Shown piece by piece: positions 30,523 through 38,997 of a DNA stretch of 64,000 nt. Numbering within the stretch: the stretch's first letter is position 1; each line of letters starts with the position of its first letter. Source of the DNA: a virus. Its lineage: Duplodnaviria; Caudoviricetes. The position numbers were made by a program, and so were the translations under genes. The notes under the pieces are model-generated. The model did no database searches. It was not told the DNA's origin and saw only the letters and a program-made list of their open reading frames with translations. The stretch lies in the IMG/VR virus record IMGVR_UViG_3300025000_000057; one strand, 5' to 3'.

Positions 30523-31140
30523 ATGTCTGAATGCGAATTCTATGGACGTTGTTTAAGCGGGGCTAAGAATTCGTGCTACAGGTGCATGAATAAAGATCTT
30601 TTAAGATTACCTGAAGATAAGGTACGTAACCAACGTCGTAAGAAAGCCGGACACTTTAATAACTCACAAATCGCCAGGAATAATCCATCCTGGCGTAATG
30701 CCGAAACTCAAGGTACATTAACTGTAAATGCTATGCCTAGCGCCGTAGAGATGGAGGCTAAGATTAACCCCGGTTCCGGAAATCAAACACATCGTCCAGG
30801 AGATTTTCTGGATGATGTGATATTTAATGAGACTAAAGAAAGAAAACCTATAATTACAGGTGGAGGAAAGTTATCTATAACAATAGAAAAAGGATGGCTT
30901 GATAAGGCTATTGCAGAGTGTAAGGGTAGGGGCAAGTTCCCGGTAGTTAACTTCAAACTTAAAGATACAGATGATTTGTACTCATTCTCTAAATTCGATA
31001 CCATTGCAGAGATGGTTCAGATGATTAAGTATCTAAAGAATGAACTGTTTAACTCCAGGGAGCAGTTAAAGATAACAATGCGAGAACTGCAAATCCTTCG
31101 CGATACTGTCAGTATGCAACATGAGAAGGAGAGCGATTAA
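30523..31140 (+). CDS. PD-(D/E)XK Holliday-junction-resolvase-like nuclease
   Basis: NPGSGN...PGDF..D...ETKE...SITIEKGWLDK...FPVVNF. Confidence 0.65.
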   Translation: MSECEFYGRCLSGAKNSCYRCMNKDLLRLPEDKVRNQRRKKAGHFNNSQIARNNPSWRNAETQGTLTVNAMPSAVEMEAKINPGSGNQTHRPGDFLDDVIFNETKERKPIITGGGKLSITIEKGWLDKAIAECKGRGKFPVVNFKLKDTDDLYSFSKFDTIAEMVQMIKYLKNELFNSREQLKITMRELQILRDTVSMQHEKESD

Positions 31141-34100
31141 TGTGTCAACACCTTATGTACGTAAACGTGATGGTGAAACACTAGCAGAATGGTATCCTGA
31201 GAAAATTCGTATGGCAATACAGAAAGCTTTTATTGCCAGTGAGATACCTTATGAAGATCAATGTCTTACGTTATTAATAAGTAAGGTAATTGAACAATTG
31301 CCGGATGAAAAGATCATTGATATAGAAACCATCCAGGACGTTGTTGAGCAGACTCTTTGCGTCGCAGGATACTGGAAAGTATCTAGAAGATATGCCGTAT
31401 ATAGAGAACGACGAGCTGCCCTACGCGAAGGTAAGGATGATCTAATGGATGTAATCCGGGATATCGACCGAGAAGCTACAAAGGATAATGCTAATGTAGG
31501 GCCCACTATGGCTGGTAAGGTACTTCAGATATCCGAAGCCGCATCTGGGTATTTTTACGGTAAGAGAGTAATACCTCGAGAGTTTAGTGAGGCACATGAT
31601 AATGGAGACATCCATATCCATGATAAAGCTTGGTATGGCAAAGGACTCAATTGCTGTCAAATACCTTATGAGAAACTAGCTGCTCATGGATTTAATACCG
31701 GCCATGGCTTTATCCGTCCAGCCCGTAGCTTAAAGACCGCTGCTATGCATGCGAGCATAATTATCCAGGCAAATCAGAATGAGATGTACGGCGGTCAAAG
31801 TTATCCGGATTTCGATAATCAGTTCGTCGCGACCGGAATAATGGAGCAACAACGGGAGAAGATACGTCGTGATTTACGGTATGGCGTAGAACTTACAGGT
31901 AAGAACTTTAACGAATTAGATCCGGAAGCCATTGATACTCAGGTAGAAAGAATACTCGATCATAAAGGATTCCAAGCTATGGAGGCTTTAATCTATAACC
32001 TTAACACGATGCATTGCTTGCCGTATAGTCAGGAGATTTGGATATACGATACTGTCGAAGAAGAACTCTTACAGATAGCTATTGGCAAATTGGCTGAAAT
32101 CTTTGAACCCAATCGGTATCAAACTATCAGTCTTAACCATGTGACTGGTAAGGCAGAGATGAAGTATATTACAAGTGTCAGTAAGAAAGATAATAACCGT
32201 AGACTTATTACTCTTATTGACAATGAAGGTAGGAAAAATACTACTACCGATAATCATGTTACTATGTGTATGGATGACTACGGTAATGTAACTGGCAGGT
32301 TCCCAGAAACATTGAATCATGTTTTATCTCCAAGAGGTATCGATCTCCCACCGGTTAGAGGCGATATCGGTTTAGATCATTATCATTCACGAAAAGTTCA
32401 AAACTACTTAGATGATCATATTGTAGTAACTATGGAGTTTGCCAAGATAGCTGGTTATTATGTGGCTGAAGGTAGTGTAGTAGGAGGATCTCAACTCTGC
32501 TTTACAGTATGTTCTACTAATAAAGAAGATGAGTTAATCTCTCTTATGCAGCAATGTTATGGAGAGAATATTACTTATAATCGTTATCCTACACCTATCG
32601 GTAAACCGAAGGATATACGGTTTAATGTAGGTAAGGTATGGGCCGATATGTTTAAAGACAAGTTCGGCTATGACGCTTATACTAAACATATTCCTGTAGA
32701 GATCTTGTTTGCAGAAGATGAAGTACTTATATCATTCCTTAATGGGTACTTCAAATGTGACGGTAGTATTAAAGAGAACTATATTATAGCTACCACTGTA
32801 AGTAAGAGATTACGCAATGAGTTAAATCTCATGCTTTTAAGGTTGCGTGAGCTTCCTCATATAGCCGAGAGAACTACCAGTTCGAATTACGGTACATCAC
32901 TCAATTATGAGATATCTATTAGTGGAATTGCGGAGAATAGATTAGGATTAGAGTTTGGTTGTAAGGTTATGTATGAACAAAAGCATTACGACTACGAATT
33001 TCTGAAATCTCTAATCAAAGAAAACAATAAGCTAATCCAGTATAAGAAGATTAAGCCCCATGAAATAGATATATATGCTATGACAGACAAACGACTCGGG
33101 GCCGCTACTAACGTATTCCCCGTTTCTATTAATCAATGTCTTGAGTCTAACAGTGGTGATGAATACGTCTACGATTTATCTGTAGAAGATAATGAAACAT
33201 TCTTGACAGCCGAGTGTATCTTCGTTCATAACAGCAGGGGAGGGGGGCAGATCCCTTTCTCTTCTATCAACATAGGTAATGTGCAAAGTCCCGATGCTGC
33301 TAAGATCTGTGAATGGTTCTTAAGAGCTTTTAAAGCCGGTTTAGGGAATGGCGAGCAACCGATATTTCCTAACGTTTGCTTTAAGATTAAGAGCGGCGTT
33401 AATATGCATAAGTCGGATCCGTACTATCACCTATTTCGTTTGGCACAGGAAGTTTCAGCTAAACGGCTCAATCCTAGTTGGGTATTCTGCGACAGTAGTT
33501 TTAATAAAGACGGAGATATCTCTTATATGGGTTGTCGTACCCGTGTAGTAGCCGACCGTCATGGAGAATCTACTACAATTGAGAGAGGAAACGTAGGGTT
33601 TACCACAGAGAATTTACCCAGACTAGCTATAAAGGCTATGTTAAAGCATCCTGATGATACAGATGCCAGGTTAAGTTACTTCTTTGAATTGCATAATGAA
33701 GTATTAAACCTTATAGTACGGCAGCTCATGCATCGTTTTGAATATATATGTACATTAAAGGCTAAAGACTTTCCTTTCCTAATTGGTCAAGACTTATACA
33801 GGGATGCTGACAAATTAAATCCAGAAGATAGTATCTATCTAGCTGCTAGGCATGGTACACTTACACTAGGCTTTATTGGTTTAGCTGAATGTTTGAAAGT
33901 ACTTGTAGGTAAGTATCATGCTGAAAGTACAAATGCACTGGCCCTGGGTCATAAAATTATATCTTATATTCGCAAGATAGCCGATGAAGCATGCGAGAAA
34001 TACGACCTTAACTTCTCTGTTATTGCTACTCCGGCAGAAGGTTTATCGGGTAGGTTTACCAAACTTGACCGTGAAGAGTTTGGGACAATTCCCGGAGCGA

Positions 34101-34507
34101 CTGATAAGAAATACTATACAAACAGTTATCATGTACCGGTTGATTATCCTATTAGCTATTATGATAAAATAGCAATAGAGGGGCCATTCCATAAATATTG
34201 CAATGGTGGCCACATGAGTTACATTGAATTCGAAAGTATGCCGCAACACAATATCGATGCTATTGAGAATATAGTATTACACATGGCCGCTTGCGATATG
34301 GGTTACGCTGCTGTTAATTATCCAGTAGATTTGTGCAAGTCCTGTGGTACTCATAATAATATAATACCACATGGAGAACCCTGTCCTGTATGTGGAGAAA
34401 GAGATAAGATAGATAGGATTCGCAGAATAACAGGGTACATTTCAACACTTGAGCGCTTCAATGACGCAAAAGTAGCGGAAGAGACAGATCGCATACCTCA
34501 TGTGTGA
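31121..34507 (+). CDS. nrdD: class III anaerobic ribonucleotide reductase with ATP cone and intein
   Basis: VRKRDG ATP cone, AHDNGDIHIHD, QNEMYGGQS, MGCRT, IATPAEGLS, YYTNS, RRITGYI; true start probably GTG 31142. Confidence 0.96.
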   Translation: MRRRAINVSTPYVRKRDGETLAEWYPEKIRMAIQKAFIASEIPYEDQCLTLLISKVIEQLPDEKIIDIETIQDVVEQTLCVAGYWKVSRRYAVYRERRAALREGKDDLMDVIRDIDREATKDNANVGPTMAGKVLQISEAASGYFYGKRVIPREFSEAHDNGDIHIHDKAWYGKGLNCCQIPYEKLAAHGFNTGHGFIRPARSLKTAAMHASIIIQANQNEMYGGQSYPDFDNQFVATGIMEQQREKIRRDLRYGVELTGKNFNELDPEAIDTQVERILDHKGFQAMEALIYNLNTMHCLPYSQEIWIYDTVEEELLQIAIGKLAEIFEPNRYQTISLNHVTGKAEMKYITSVSKKDNNRRLITLIDNEGRKNTTTDNHVTMCMDDYGNVTGRFPETLNHVLSPRGIDLPPVRGDIGLDHYHSRKVQNYLDDHIVVTMEFAKIAGYYVAEGSVVGGSQLCFTVCSTNKEDELISLMQQCYGENITYNRYPTPIGKPKDIRFNVGKVWADMFKDKFGYDAYTKHIPVEILFAEDEVLISFLNGYFKCDGSIKENYIIATTVSKRLRNELNLMLLRLRELPHIAERTTSSNYGTSLNYEISISGIAENRLGLEFGCKVMYEQKHYDYEFLKSLIKENNKLIQYKKIKPHEIDIYAMTDKRLGAATNVFPVSINQCLESNSGDEYVYDLSVEDNETFLTAECIFVHNSRGGGQIPFSSINIGNVQSPDAAKICEWFLRAFKAGLGNGEQPIFPNVCFKIKSGVNMHKSDPYYHLFRLAQEVSAKRLNPSWVFCDSSFNKDGDISYMGCRTRVVADRHGESTTIERGNVGFTTENLPRLAIKAMLKHPDDTDARLSYFFELHNEVLNLIVRQLMHRFEYICTLKAKDFPFLIGQDLYRDADKLNPEDSIYLAARHGTLTLGFIGLAECLKVLVGKYHAESTNALALGHKIISYIRKIADEACEKYDLNFSVIATPAEGLSGRFTKLDREEFGTIPGATDKKYYTNSYHVPVDYPISYYDKIAIEGPFHKYCNGGHMSYIEFESMPQHNIDAIENIVLHMAACDMGYAAVNYPVDLCKSCGTHNNIIPHGEPCPVCGERDKIDRIRRITGYISTLERFNDAKVAEETDRIPHV
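32015..33232 (+). mobile_element. intein with LAGLIDADG homing endonuclease (406 aa) in NrdD
   Basis: NLNTMH|CLPYSQEI ... VYDLSVEDNETFLTAECIFVHN|SRGGGQ; blocks FAKIAGYYVAEGS and FLNGYFKCDGSI. Confidence 0.93.
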
Positions 34508-35149: not shown

Positions 35150-35455
35150 ATGAGTTTTGCCAATCTTCTTAAAGAAGATATAATCGAATTTAAGACCCGA
35201 GTAAGGAATTCTTTTAGCAATAACCAATGCTCAGGTTATAGCGGGTTGTGCATAGTAGATGAAAACGGTAAAGAGCTTAAAAATAGCGTAGATTACATTA
35301 TAGATGGCGGTATTTTAACAGTAAAAGAGCATATCAATCCTATCGGTCTTATGATGCATGCTAGACTCGCACCTATGCCTCTTGAGAAACCTAGCTATGA
35401 AAAGTTTACATCTAACAATCCTGTAAAATGGTATAATAAACGACGCAGGAAGTGA
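35150..35455 (+). CDS. hypothetical protein
   Basis: ATG 35150 after GGTGA SD. Confidence 0.55.
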   Translation: MSFANLLKEDIIEFKTRVRNSFSNNQCSGYSGLCIVDENGKELKNSVDYIIDGGILTVKEHINPIGLMMHARLAPMPLEKPSYEKFTSNNPVKWYNKRRRK

Positions 35456-35706
35456 TTAGTATGAATGATACAAATAAAGTTCAGGACTTAAAGAGCATCC
35501 CTGACGTTGAAATCGAGAAAAGATTTAGCTATCATCCTCCTACGGAAGAGCAGCCTCAGAAGTATGAGGAGATTCGCGGTATGGGTAAGGCTTTCGCAGA
35601 ACTTATCAATGAATTATGTCCTGACAGCATGGATAAACGCGAAGCTATAAAGAAGATTGAAGAGGCTGTATTCTGGGCCAATGCTTCAATAGCTCGTTAT
35701 AGTTAA
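35452..35706 (+). CDS. Acb2/Tad1-hairpin-like protein (candidate immune-signal sponge)
   Basis: RFSYHPP..EQ..KYEEIR...AELINELCPDSMDKREAIKKIEEAVFWANASIAR. Confidence 0.55.
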   Translation: MISMNDTNKVQDLKSIPDVEIEKRFSYHPPTEEQPQKYEEIRGMGKAFAELINELCPDSMDKREAIKKIEEAVFWANASIARYS

Positions 35707-35717: not shown

Positions 35718-35899
35718 GATGTTAATAGGTAGTGGGCTATACCGAAGGCTAAGGTATACACTGGGATATATTATACATGGCGTATAAGGTGTGGTATATC
35801 TCAATTCCAGAAGTCAACACTGTGTAATTCTACTGCAGGGGATTACTAAATCATGAGAGACTGCAATCTCTCATCTACCTATTAGCTTTTAATAATGGA

Positions 35900-35978
35900 T
35901 GTTGGCAGATGTCCAGTGCTCACAAACAATGTCCAGTGTGCCGGAGGGTGCAATCCAAGACTGGCACACTGGATGACA
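35900..35978 (+). ncRNA. tRNA-leader structured element family A, copy 1
   Basis: homologous to 36681-36760; covarying stems; ends 1 nt before tRNA-Asn. Confidence 0.65.
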
Positions 35979-35979
35979 C

Positions 35980-36054
35980 AGGGATATAGTTCAATGGTAG
36001 AACGGCGGACTGTTAATCCGTATGTTGCTGGTTCGAATCCAGCTTTCCCTGCCA
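35980..36054 (+). tRNA. tRNA-Asn(GTT)
   Basis: full cloverleaf, loop CT-GTT-AA, encoded CCA. Confidence 0.93.
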
Positions 36055-36173
36055 ATGTGGCAGCTGCAAGCGGCGCTGCTTCTTGTTCGGATAGATTCTC
36101 TAGTTTATTTATTAAAGTGGACTAGAGAATCTATCCTCAAGAAGTACACGTAGTCCACTAAATTGCAGCACAT
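36055..36173 (+). ncRNA. tRNA-leader structured element family B, copy 1
   Basis: GTGGCAGCTGCAARCGGCGC...[long hairpin]...GTACACGTAGTCCACTAAATTGCAGCA; fills the whole spacer between two tRNAs. Confidence 0.7.
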
Positions 36174-36251
36174 GTCGGTGTAGTCCAATTGGCAGAGACA
36201 TACGGTTTAAGCCCGTACCAGTGATGGGTTCAAGTCCCTCCACCGATACCA
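36174..36251 (+). tRNA. tRNA-Leu(TAA), short variable loop
   Basis: GTCGGTG/CACCGAT acceptor, TACGG-TTTAAGC-CCGTA, A73-CCA; irregular T stem. Confidence 0.7.
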
Positions 36252-36272
36252 ATAATATAAGGTGATGATATA

Positions 36273-36425
36273 ATGTCTAAGAAATCATGTTCAACTTGTT
36301 TGTATGGAAATTGCGATATAGAATTTTATGAATTAATTCCATGCATAGAATGTAATGAATTATTATTTTGGGAATTTAAAGACTTAAGTTTCTTAGATAT
36401 TGTAATACACTTTATAAATATGTAG
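36273..36425 (+). CDS. small Cys-rich protein (50 aa)
   Basis: MSKKSCSTCLYGNC...PCIEC; AAGGTGA SD; stop overlaps tRNA-Gln 5' end. Confidence 0.55.
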   Translation: MSKKSCSTCLYGNCDIEFYELIPCIECNELLFWEFKDLSFLDIVIHFINM

Positions 36426-36501
36426 GGGTGTAGCTAAGTTGGTCTAAGGCATACGGTTTTGATCCGTACATTCGTAGGTTCGAATCCTACTTCCCCTTCC
36501 A
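36424..36501 (+). tRNA. tRNA-Gln(TTG)
   Basis: TACGG-TTTTGAT-CCGTA, GTAGG-TTCGAAT-CCTAC, CCA. Confidence 0.88.
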
Positions 36502-36502
36502 T

Positions 36503-36577
36503 AACGACGCTGAGTAGAGGTAGCTTGTCAGGTTCATACCCTGAAGGTCGTGGGTTCGAATCCCTCCCCTGAAACCG
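36503..36577 (+). pseudogene. degenerate tRNA-Met(CAT)-like gene
   Basis: D, anticodon (TCAGG-TTCATAC-CCTGA) and T arms present; acceptor stem unpaired, no CCA. Confidence 0.6.
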
Positions 36578-36584
36578 TTATCAT

Positions 36585-36670
36585 GGAAGAGTGCCCGAGT
36601 GGTTAATGGGAGCAGACTGTAAATCTGCCGTGTAACAACTTCGTAGGTTCAAATCCTACCTCTTCCACCA
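36585..36670 (+). tRNA. tRNA-Tyr(GTA)
   Basis: GGAAGAG/CTCTTCC, GCAGA-CTGTAAA-TCTGC, long variable arm, CCA. Confidence 0.95.
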
Positions 36671-36680
36671 TAAGTATTAG

Positions 36681-36760
36681 AGTTGGCATATCTCTAGAGC
36701 TCACATACAATATTCAGTGTGCCCAATGGAACCCACTTAAGACTGGCACACTGAATGACT
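36681..36760 (+). ncRNA. tRNA-leader structured element family A, copy 2
   Basis: 35/42 identity with copy 1 over the 5' half; shared AAGACTGGCACACTG(G/A)ATGAC; abuts tRNA-Ser. Confidence 0.65.
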
Positions 36761-36845
36761 GGAAGGTTGACAGAGCGGTAATGTGCTTGATTGCTAATCA
36801 AAGGCCAGGGTAACACCTGCATAGGTTCAAATCCTATACCTTCCG
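36761..36845 (+). tRNA. tRNA-Ser(GCT), lacks encoded CCA
   Basis: GGAAGGT/ACCTTCC, loop TT-GCT-AA, long variable arm, G73 then CTC. Confidence 0.88.
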
Positions 36846-37308
36846 CTCTAAACTAATTGGTGGTGATTATTATTTCTAATAAATATAAAAAGATTAGAAT
36901 AAACAAAAATACCACCAATAACGAACATAGATTAGTTATGGAAGCAAAACTTGGTAGAGAGTTACTTAGTTCTGAAATTGTTCATCACAAAGATGAATGT
37001 AAAGGAAATAATGAACCTAGTAATTTAGAATTGACCACAAGAAAAGAACATAGTAGATTACATATGCTTGGTAAGAAATTACCCGAATCAACTAGAGAAA
37101 AGATGAGAAATAGACCTAGTATAAAGGGTTCTAATCATGTTAATGCAAAACTTAATGAAAAACAGGTTGTATATATTAGATGTTTACTTAGTAATGGCTA
37201 TGGTATTAGAGAATTAGGAAGATTATTTGAAATACATCACAGTGTAATATCTGATATAAAGAATCGTTTAATATGGAAACATGTATTATAAGGGCCTATA
37301 CCTTCCGC
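36833..37308 (+). mobile_element. HNH cassette flanked by 14-bp direct repeats of the tRNA-Ser 3' end
   Basis: CCTATACCTTCCGC at 36833-36846 and 37295-37308 (second followed by CA, restoring CCA). Confidence 0.75.
36857..37291 (+). CDS. HNH homing endonuclease (HNH_3-like + C-terminal HTH)
   Basis: EHRLVME..LGRELLSSEIVHHKDECKGNNEPSNLEL...EHSRLH; GSNHVNAKLNEKQV..IR; very AT-rich. Confidence 0.88.
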   Translation: MVVIIISNKYKKIRINKNTTNNEHRLVMEAKLGRELLSSEIVHHKDECKGNNEPSNLELTTRKEHSRLHMLGKKLPESTREKMRNRPSIKGSNHVNAKLNEKQVVYIRCLLSNGYGIRELGRLFEIHHSVISDIKNRLIWKHVL

Positions 37309-37323
37309 CATTTATGGAATCAT

Positions 37324-37367
37324 GGAGAGTCGCAATTTATAAGTCGATTCTCCCTCTGTCTCCGCCA
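37324..37367 (+). pseudogene. tRNA-Ser-like remnant/minihelix
   Basis: GGAGA.../TCTCC-G-CCA ends, no D or anticodon arm. Confidence 0.35.
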
Positions 37368-37450
37368 GTATTAAATTGTAGACGGTTGATATTTTAATGG
37401 CTTTAGCATACCGGAACAATTAACTAAGCGAATAAAAGCCATTGCATTAC

Positions 37451-37535
37451 GGAGGGTAGGCCAACGGTGGTAAGCTGTCTTGAAAACAGTCGAGGTGTAA
37501 AAGCCTAGCGGGTTCGACTCCTGTACCCTCCGCCA
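37451..37535 (+). tRNA. tRNA-Ser(TGA)
   Basis: GGAGGGT/ACCCTCC, GCTGT-CTTGAAA-ACAGT, long variable arm, G73-CCA. Confidence 0.9.
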
Positions 37536-37599
37536 GGGATAACTGCTGATCCCAACCACTTTATCATGTGCTCAAGGAGTTGCGACCCTTGGGCCTCCT

Positions 37600-37676
37600 C
37601 GGGATGTAGCTTAGTTTGGTAAGGCGCCTACTTTAGGAGCAGGTAACTGGGAGTTCAAATCTCTCCACCCAGACCA
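37600..37676 (+). tRNA. tRNA with Leu(TAG) anticodon on a tRNA-Pro-like body
   Basis: CGGGATG start and D arm like tRNA-Pro at 38921; loop TT-TAG-GA; short variable loop; two acceptor mismatches. Confidence 0.6.
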
Positions 37677-37693
37677 GAGGGCTTCACGCCCTG

Positions 37694-37824
37694 TAGTGGC
37701 AGCTGCAAACGGCGCGACTTTAACCAGTGATATAACTCCATAAGCTGATGTAATATATCTGCTAATATGGGTAAAGGATCTATCACGGATTAAGGTACAC
37801 GTAGTCCACTAAATTGCAGCATTA
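37694..37824 (+). ncRNA. tRNA-leader structured element family B, copy 2
   Basis: same conserved ends as copy 1, different central hairpin; ends 1 nt before tRNA-Met-like gene. Confidence 0.7.
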
Positions 37825-37825
37825 T

Positions 37826-37901
37826 CGCAGGTTGGAGCAATTGGAAGCTCGTCAGTTTCATAAACTGGAGGTTGCCGGTTCGAGTCCGGCACTCGCAACC
37901 A
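37826..37901 (+). tRNA. tRNA-Met(CAT), initiator-like
   Basis: C1:A72 mismatch, loop TT-CAT-AA, CCA; lacks the three G-C anticodon-stem pairs. Confidence 0.75.
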
Positions 37902-38777: not shown

Positions 38778-38920
38778 GAGCCTTATTAATAAGGCAGGAT
38801 TGACTACACCTTGAAGTAGTTGGGTTTCGGGCTGTACCCGGCATCGATAAGTATGTCAAAACAGTACTAACTTAGTGCTTCGACACTTTGACCGGGTCTT
38901 CCTATCTCCCCGGTCATTGT

Positions 38921-38997
38921 CGGGATGTGGCCTAGCTTGGTAAGGCGCCTGTTTTGGGAACAGGAAATCGGGGGTTCAAATCCCTCCATCCCGACCA
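38921..38997 (+). tRNA. tRNA-Pro(TGG)
   Basis: CGGGATG/CATCCCG, CCTGT-TTTGGGA-ACAGG, CCA. Confidence 0.95.

Follow-up and report, generated by a model that had tools for sequence, protein, structure and literature searches.

A repeated structured RNA element without known relatives in the tRNA array of a huge uncultivated phage

The window analysed here, 64,000 nucleotides (nt) from IMG/VR virus record IMGVR_UViG_3300025000_000057, is part of an uncultivated phage genome of ~219 kb known from groundwater and sediment metagenomes. Proteins and DNA identical to those of the window are found in NCBI assembly GCA_902725955.1 (219,483 bp) and in several ENA, JGI and Logan contigs. Amongst its products are an NrdD that bears an intein, a primase, UvsX, SbcCD and a DnaE-type polymerase; the polymerase is ~35% identical to that of the closest cultured relatives, Moorella phage MTATph1 and Bacillus phage 0305phi8-36. 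NrdD has one phage protein at 75% identity and one match at 60%, followed by others at ~55%; as these last belong mostly to Desulfotomaculum-type Firmicutes, a Firmicute host is likely. Between the replication module on the + strand and the structural module on the - strand lies a 3.3-kb array of 11 transfer RNAs (tRNAs), all encoded on the + strand together with their CCA, amongst which small open reading frames (ORFs) and an HNH endonuclease gene are interspersed. Two spacers of this array harbour copies of the same sequence, here called family B (Table 1), which is a real, orphan, structured RNA element.

Copy 1 constitutes the entire spacer between tRNA-Asn (35980-36054) and tRNA-Leu(taa) (36174-36251), and the boundaries called by ARAGORN (36054/36174) agree with the first-pass annotation that it runs exactly from one CCA to the G1 of the next tRNA. 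Copy 2 is flanked by tRNA-Leu(tag) (last position 37676) and tRNA-Met (first position 37826); a hairpin of 17 nt stands between it and tRNA-Leu(tag), and a single U separates it from tRNA-Met. Both copies are on the strand of the 11 tRNAs. Each contains a 20-nt and a 27-nt block flanking an interior of 67 or 79 nt, and the two parts behave very differently: the blocks are identical at 46 of 47 positions, whereas the interiors are 52% identical, compared with 49 +/- 3% for shuffles (p = 0.17). The earlier description of conserved ends around a swappable long hairpin is therefore apt. Given that no two tRNA paralogues in the array exceed 82% identity, this pattern argues that the core is under sequence selection. 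Within the window, GTGGCAGCTGCAARCGGCGC (the 20-nt block) occurs only at 36057 and 37696, and GTACACGTAGTCCACTAAATTGCAGCA (the 27-nt block) only at 36144 and 37795, allowing up to 3 mismatches (0 expected from shuffles in each case). Relaxing the limit to 5/20 or 7/27 mismatches revealed no third, degenerate copy, and a covariance model built on family B (R1) and run over the window with filters off returned the two copies only. The arms of both copies are not dispersed repeats. A coding sequence was rejected, as the copies have no ORF in common.

Table 1. Family B copies, their parts and the adjoining small hairpin in the window (CM, covariance model score)
Feature	Position	Strand	Remarks
Family B copy 1, 119 nt	36055..36173	+	CM 138 bits
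Conserved 5' block, copy 1	36057..36076	+	GUGG, CA linker, P2 5' strand 36063-36069, P2a 5' strand 36070-36071, P3 5' strand 36073-36075
Variable arm, copy 1	36077..36143	+	Near-perfect hairpin; 16-bp exact inverted repeat 36089-36104 / 36121-36136; unique in window
Conserved 3' block, copy 1	36144..36170	+	P3 3' strand 36149-36151, P2a 3' strand 36153-36154, loop CCACUAAA 36155-36162, P2 3' strand 36163-36169
Small hairpin ahead of copy 2	37677..37693	+	AGGGC/GCCCU stem; adjoins the tRNA-Leu(tag) CCA
Family B copy 2, 131 nt	37694..37824	+	CM 153 bits
Conserved 5' block, copy 2	37696..37715	+	A at 37709 where copy 1 has G; opposite U in both
Variable arm, copy 2	37716..37794	+	Irregular hairpin; unrelated to copy 1 arm except for a short AUCUAUC stretch
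Conserved 3' block, copy 2	37795..37821	+	Loop CCACUAAA 37806-37813, P2 3' strand 37814-37820

The contrast between blocks and interior also bears on the simplest explanation of the repeat, namely that family B is a functionless spacer whose copies are similar merely because they were recently duplicated. The existence of two copies only, in one genome and with no homologues, is what such a spacer would give. However, a recent duplication would have kept the interior alike, whilst here the interior is at chance level between flanks that are 98% identical, and P1 (the short closing helix described below) and the outer flanks differ between the copies too. Judged from these sequences, a recent plain duplication is excluded, and a functionless origin of the similarity is improbable.

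The minimum free energy (MFE) folds of the two copies share one architecture, composed of a 7-bp helix P2, a 2-bp P2a, a G/A 1x1 internal loop, a 3-bp P3 and the long variable arm, with z-scores of -8.7 (copy 1) and -3.2 (copy 2). The same core is obtained with RNAalifold. The predicted pairing of GCTGCAA with TTGCAGC was borne out, since GCUGCAA/UUGCAGC forms P2 in both individual folds and in the RNAalifold consensus. All 21 modelled pairs can form in both copies (21/21), compared with 20-44% when the partners are slid. In both copies the + strand folds better than the - strand, by 2.6-5.8 kcal/mol. The sole difference within the blocks, G36070 in copy 1 and A37709 in copy 2, lies opposite a U in both and thus converts a G.U into an A-U pair; this pair-keeping change, together with other G.U pairs, indicates a + strand RNA. 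With blocks this similar, a common fold and a favoured strand, the claim of a repeated structured element on the tRNA strand stands. Single-stranded features of the core comprise a GGCA bulge 5' of P2 and an 8-nt loop, CCACUAAA, 5' of the P2 3' strand, both of which are mostly unpaired in the ensemble. The arms form 25-30 bp of largely continuous helix, and the family B fold is retained when longer precursors are folded.

An alternative is that the element acts at the DNA level, as a recombination or homing-nuclease target, a cassette boundary or a phage-specific promoter, or that it is a relic of tRNA 5' fragments kept alike by gene conversion. There is indeed an HNH endonuclease insertion in the array and an intein in nrdD, and the arm of copy 1 contains a perfect 16-bp DNA palindrome. 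In favour of the relic variant, the 5' block can be aligned to the first part of tRNA-Pro (p ~0.01), and GUAGUCCA is common to the 3' block and the tRNA-Leu downstream (p ~0.01-0.04 over these comparisons, uncorrected for 12 tRNAs). Family B may thus be built from tRNA fragments, which is a weak lead and one that concerns origin rather than function. Set against these points, two sites in 64 kb do not make a general promoter, and neither an intrinsic terminator nor a sigma-70 or sigma-54 promoter is called in either copy. An attC-like element or a miniature inverted-repeat transposable element was rejected, since neither target-site duplications nor additional copies are present. The complementarity between the blocks, the G.U pairs and the pair-preserving G/A change all point to RNA, and it would be contrived to invoke gene conversion that acted on two short tracts but passed over the interior. 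A DNA-level role or a relic is accordingly rather unlikely.

Outside P2, P2a and P3, the pairing is less certain. The closing helix P1 (4 bp) is AUGU/ACAU in copy 1 and UAGU/AUUA in copy 2. The earlier claim that the closing stems covary is upheld in so far as P1 contains two double changes, but the helix itself is energetically marginal, as enforcing it costs +0.7 and +2.8 kcal/mol in the respective copies. P1 competes with a candidate pseudoknot between GUGG and CCAC, which are present in both copies (duplex -3.5 kcal/mol) and in copy 2 extend to UAGUGG/CCACUA, a helix of 6 bp (-6.4 kcal/mol). The GTGG/CCAC pseudoknot suggested earlier is geometrically plausible: an H-type fold is predicted in which a 2-nt CA linker spans the 7-bp P2 and UAAA provides an A-rich loop. 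Because the pairing is invariant, GUGG:CCAC has no covariation support. A further alternative pairing noted in the first-pass annotation also exists, a 9-bp helix of AGUGGACUA with UAGUCCACU, in copy 1 only. In common with classical H-type pseudoknots with an A-rich third loop, such as those of frameshifting sites and riboswitches, the predicted fold would combine a 4-6-bp stem 1 with a 7-bp stem 2 bridged by a loop 1 of 2 nt, and its loop 3, UAAA, could run along the minor groove of stem 1. It would differ from them in the insertion of a whole 90-nt helical domain at the junction of stem 2 and stem 1, in its invariant pairing and in its setting, which is neither coding nor that of a riboswitch.

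Family B matches no known RNA family. Scans of each copy alone against Rfam 15 at lax thresholds (E up to 10) returned only microRNA and small nucleolar RNA hairpin noise far below gathering scores; neither copy matches a ribozyme, tRNA, riboswitch, T-box, Y RNA or 6S model. Identity with a known Rfam motif, which the first-pass annotation had named as a refutation of its proposal, was thus not seen. T-box, Y RNA and 6S were rejected on this basis. Amongst the self-cleaving classes, hammerhead, hairpin, hepatitis delta virus (HDV), twister, twister-sister, pistol, hatchet, VS and glmS gave no covariance-model match. A tRNA or tRNA-like structure was likewise rejected: ARAGORN and RF00005 call the flanking tRNAs and nothing inside family B, where only local similarities to tRNA 5' parts are present.

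The comparison that matters most is with the theta ribozymes, which are minimal HDV-like ribozymes that process the 3' ends of phage tRNAs (PMC10879173). In support of such a relationship, copy 1 lies directly downstream of a phage tRNA, beginning exactly after its CCA, and small ribozymes typically pair a conserved core with a peripheral stem that is free to vary, as in the dispensable or variable stem that theta ribozymes tolerate. In both family B and the theta ribozyme drz-Mtgn-1 a short 5'-terminal helix can cross the 3'-terminal helix (here GUGG:CCAC and P2), and C-U-A-A-A stands just before the 3' strand of the last helix; in both copies of family B it stands next to UUGCAGC, with the C at 36158 and 37809, mirroring J4/2-P2 of drz-Mtgn-1. 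In HDV-like ribozymes the catalytic C opens J4/2 and is followed by N-A-A and the P2 3' strand; in family B, however, this C would at the same time be the final base in the candidate P1 strand. Despite these similarities, the HDV-like fold was rejected, as P1 has 4-6 bp instead of ~7, its first pair is G-C or U-A and not G.U, and the defining P3/L3 and P1.1 are absent. A permissive HDV-like descriptor, which recovered drz-Mtgn-1 as control, found no arrangement common to both copies, and an extended helix of ~80-90 nt occupies the place where a 3-bp P3/L3 would sit; together with direct reading of the sequence this sustains the remark that L3 and P1.1 are lacking. Theta ribozymes are expected to cut within +/-5 nt of the tRNA 3' end. 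Copy 1 starts at CCA+1 and copy 2 starts 17 nt after the CCA; since the intervening hairpin separates copy 2 from the upstream tRNA, a cut at its 5' edge would not generate a tRNA 3' end. Moreover, the tRNAs of this array encode CCA, in contrast to most theta-associated tRNAs, of which only 4.5% do so (PMC10879173). Family B therefore falls outside the HDV/theta group, although by analogy a theta-like function is possible.

Homologues were sought widely. Six motif patterns in IMG/VR gave either zero matches or matches without the second block, and one 17-mer searched in 241 million JGI metagenome records and 185,579 GTDB species genomes gave chance matches only, none of them with the 5' block. 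Against 50,697 GenBank phage records, blastn found tRNA or chance matches only, and for copy 1 none in a T4-like record. The covariance model R1 found one chance match, in an AT-rich coding stretch, amongst 155 Bacillota and other genomes, and nothing in Moorella phage MTATph1, Bacillus phage 0305phi8-36 or any of the retrieved loci, so that a model search of the kind proposed yielded no homologue in the 155 genomes or the two related jumbo phages. Relatives of the locus were also approached through four neighbouring proteins (the downstream 140-aa ORF, NrdD, a DUF87 ATPase and a 99-aa ORF embedded in the array); these led either to the same phage with an identical family B or to genomes with no tRNAs at the syntenic place. 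Reads mapped to the element show no variants. The first-pass annotation had named the lack of homologues beyond the two copies as part of what would refute its proposal, and none was found in the viral, metagenome, genome or phage collections. A function is not disproved by this absence, yet a new ribozyme class would need comparative support, and that is thereby lost.

This applies above all to the proposal that family B is a new class of small self-cleaving ribozyme separating the tRNAs of the array, with a pseudoknotted core (P1 or the pseudoknot, P2 and CUAAA) and the long arm as a dispensable peripheral helix. The theta-like context and the resemblances to drz-Mtgn-1 speak for it, but it lacks an Rfam ribozyme match, the HDV-defining parts, the expected spacing in copy 2 and homologues in which the putative catalytic nucleotides could be seen to be kept across divergence, and the prior for any orphan structured RNA being a ribozyme is low. 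P1 is marginal as well. Nothing points to self-cleavage, and we regard a ribozyme as very unlikely. In its strongest form, family B would be the founding member of a pseudoknotted class of self-cleaving, or RNase P-independent tRNA-processing, RNAs in huge Firmicute phages, with the CUAAA loop and the GGCA bulge as the active site and the arm dispensable; the chance of this being correct is slim.

Precedents of another kind are offered by non-tRNA products of tRNA transcription units. RNAC and RNAD of phage T4 adjoin the T4 tRNA genes, and 3'ETS-leuZ of E. coli is a regulatory sponge derived from a tRNA-operon spacer. These RNAs (T4 RNAC and RNAD being the species 1 and 2 RNAs) are, like family B, non-tRNA RNAs of ~100-140 nt encoded with tRNAs, and presumably the tRNA-processing machinery cuts them out of tRNA transcripts. 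Family B shares the setting of RNAC and RNAD in lying inside a phage tRNA cluster, on the tRNA strand, with a length of ~100-150 nt and without being a tRNA. RNAC and RNAD have been described as RNAs with unknown function (PMC9697503). In contrast to them, family B has two copies that keep the core unchanged and exchange the arm; it has no sequence similarity to them (blastn, copy 1) and is known here from DNA alone.

The repeat, the common fold, the strand bias and the lack of a known family are established. The reading of them that we favour, tentatively and with a probability of roughly 45%, is that family B is a transcribed spacer RNA which RNase P and the maturation of tRNA 3' ends free from the precursor, in a setting like that of T4 RNAC and RNAD. 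According to this model, the element would be a non-coding structured spacer co-transcribed with the phage tRNAs, folding into its own long irregular hairpin of P2, P2a, P3 and variable arm. Its conserved 47-nt core would expose GGCA and CCACUAAA and would be able to close into the GUGG:CCAC H-type pseudoknot. RNase P would cut at the 5' end of the downstream tRNA, with a U at position -1 in both copies, and the other end would arise as endo- or exonucleases mature the 3' end of the upstream tRNA. Ordinary host tRNA processing would thus release a probably stable RNA of 120-150 nt with a trans-acting or processing-related role. In support of this model, both copies are on the tRNA strand within the 11-tRNA array, and no terminator-like site is found between copies and tRNAs. 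As the core sequence is strictly conserved while the arm next to it drifts freely, the core is probably more than filler and may serve for recognition by a protein or another RNA.

Several observations weigh against this model. In copy 1 a very stable structure abuts the CCA of tRNA-Asn and would impede exonucleases that trim this 3' end; it is this obstacle that gives a self-cutting spacer its appeal. With two copies and no homologue, the inferred structure rests on very little covariation, and the shuffle control is weak with two sequences, as 59 of 500 shuffles reach the observed values. The public sequencing runs that hold the sequence are all DNA runs of the same identical phage, no RNA run having been found. 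A partner protein or target RNA was not identified either, and the neighbouring ORFs carry no RNA-related domains, the only domains recognized there being Acb2/Tad1 and HNH.

In another explanation, family B is a cis-acting module for processing or insulation: a self-folding spacer that would aid the folding of the adjacent tRNAs, its core or double-stranded arm serving as a site for an endonuclease of the RNase III, Y or J type from host or phage, and the excised RNA having no later function. In each spacer of the array a stable hairpin reaches to within 0-5 nt of the following tRNA, and in several a small hairpin comes after the CCA. The arms, at 25-30 bp of mostly continuous helix, have the length of RNase III-like substrates, and precursor folds preserve the family B fold. 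However, insulation alone has no need of 47 invariant nucleotides, the other spacers achieve the same hairpin layout with unrelated sequences, and there is no nuclease gene nearby. We therefore consider a purely cis-acting role unlikely.

If family B is no more than a processed spacer, it joins the poorly understood orphan RNAs that accompany tRNAs in phage clusters and have lacked an explanation since T4 RNAC and RNAD. The contrast of an invariant 47-nt core with an unconstrained arm argues for a sequence-specific partner, which would make family B a small and tractable target for pull-down or cleavage assays. Were it catalytic, it would found a ribozyme class of its own and give a second, independent case of a phage-borne RNA that processes tRNAs.

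A second repeat, family A, occurs in the same array at 35897-35979 and 36671-36760 (73% identical). TTGGCA-17 nt-(A/T)ACAAT, which resembles a sigma-70 -35/-10 pair, is present in both copies and nowhere else in the window (0.08 expected); after it comes a hairpin of 13-14 bp whose end lies 3-5 nt from the tRNA. No Rfam match was obtained, copy 1 having been scanned itself and copy 2 covered by the region scan only. From this arrangement, family A may be a promoter with a leader hairpin and not a ribozyme. The parallel drawn earlier between the GGCA motifs of the two families consequently holds in part: GGCA is present in family B, but the UUGGCA of family A lies in a hairpin loop and coincides with the -35 hexamer. 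Upstream of family A, 35721-35886 is structured and non-coding, with two hairpin loops that contain ACUGCA, and a structured non-coding spacer of 143 nt (38778-38920, z = -2.6) precedes tRNA-Pro.

Amongst the genes of the region, the 84-aa ORF just upstream of the array (35452-35706) matches the Acb2/Tad1 hairpin domain (E = 1e-20) and is, by this match, likely to encode a sponge for cyclic-nucleotide defence signals. The nrdD gene (31121-34507, 1128 aa) contains an intein with a LAGLIDADG domain, which is absent from the NrdD of the closest relative (726 aa, 75% identity). An HNH_3 endonuclease gene (36833-37310) directly follows tRNA-Ser(gct), whose 3' end (ataccttccgc) recurs after the endonuclease gene, there with CCA following. 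Between tRNA-Gln and tRNA-Tyr, 36512-36566 gives a partial match to the tRNA model (36 bits, model positions 10-63, CAU anticodon region) with no ARAGORN call, and on this evidence is a degenerate or unusual tRNA. tRNA-Ser(tga) (37451-37531) scores 40.6 bits on the tRNA-Sec model, under the gathering score of 47. tRNA-Leu(tag) (37600-37676) and tRNA-Pro(tgg) (38921-38997) are 82% identical, which suggests an anticodon switch on a Pro-type body for the former. Finally, small hairpins of 5-6 bp beginning with G(A/G)G stand directly after the CCA of three tRNAs (37536-37553, 37677-37693 and 38780-38795), and may represent a shared signal for 3' processing or protection.

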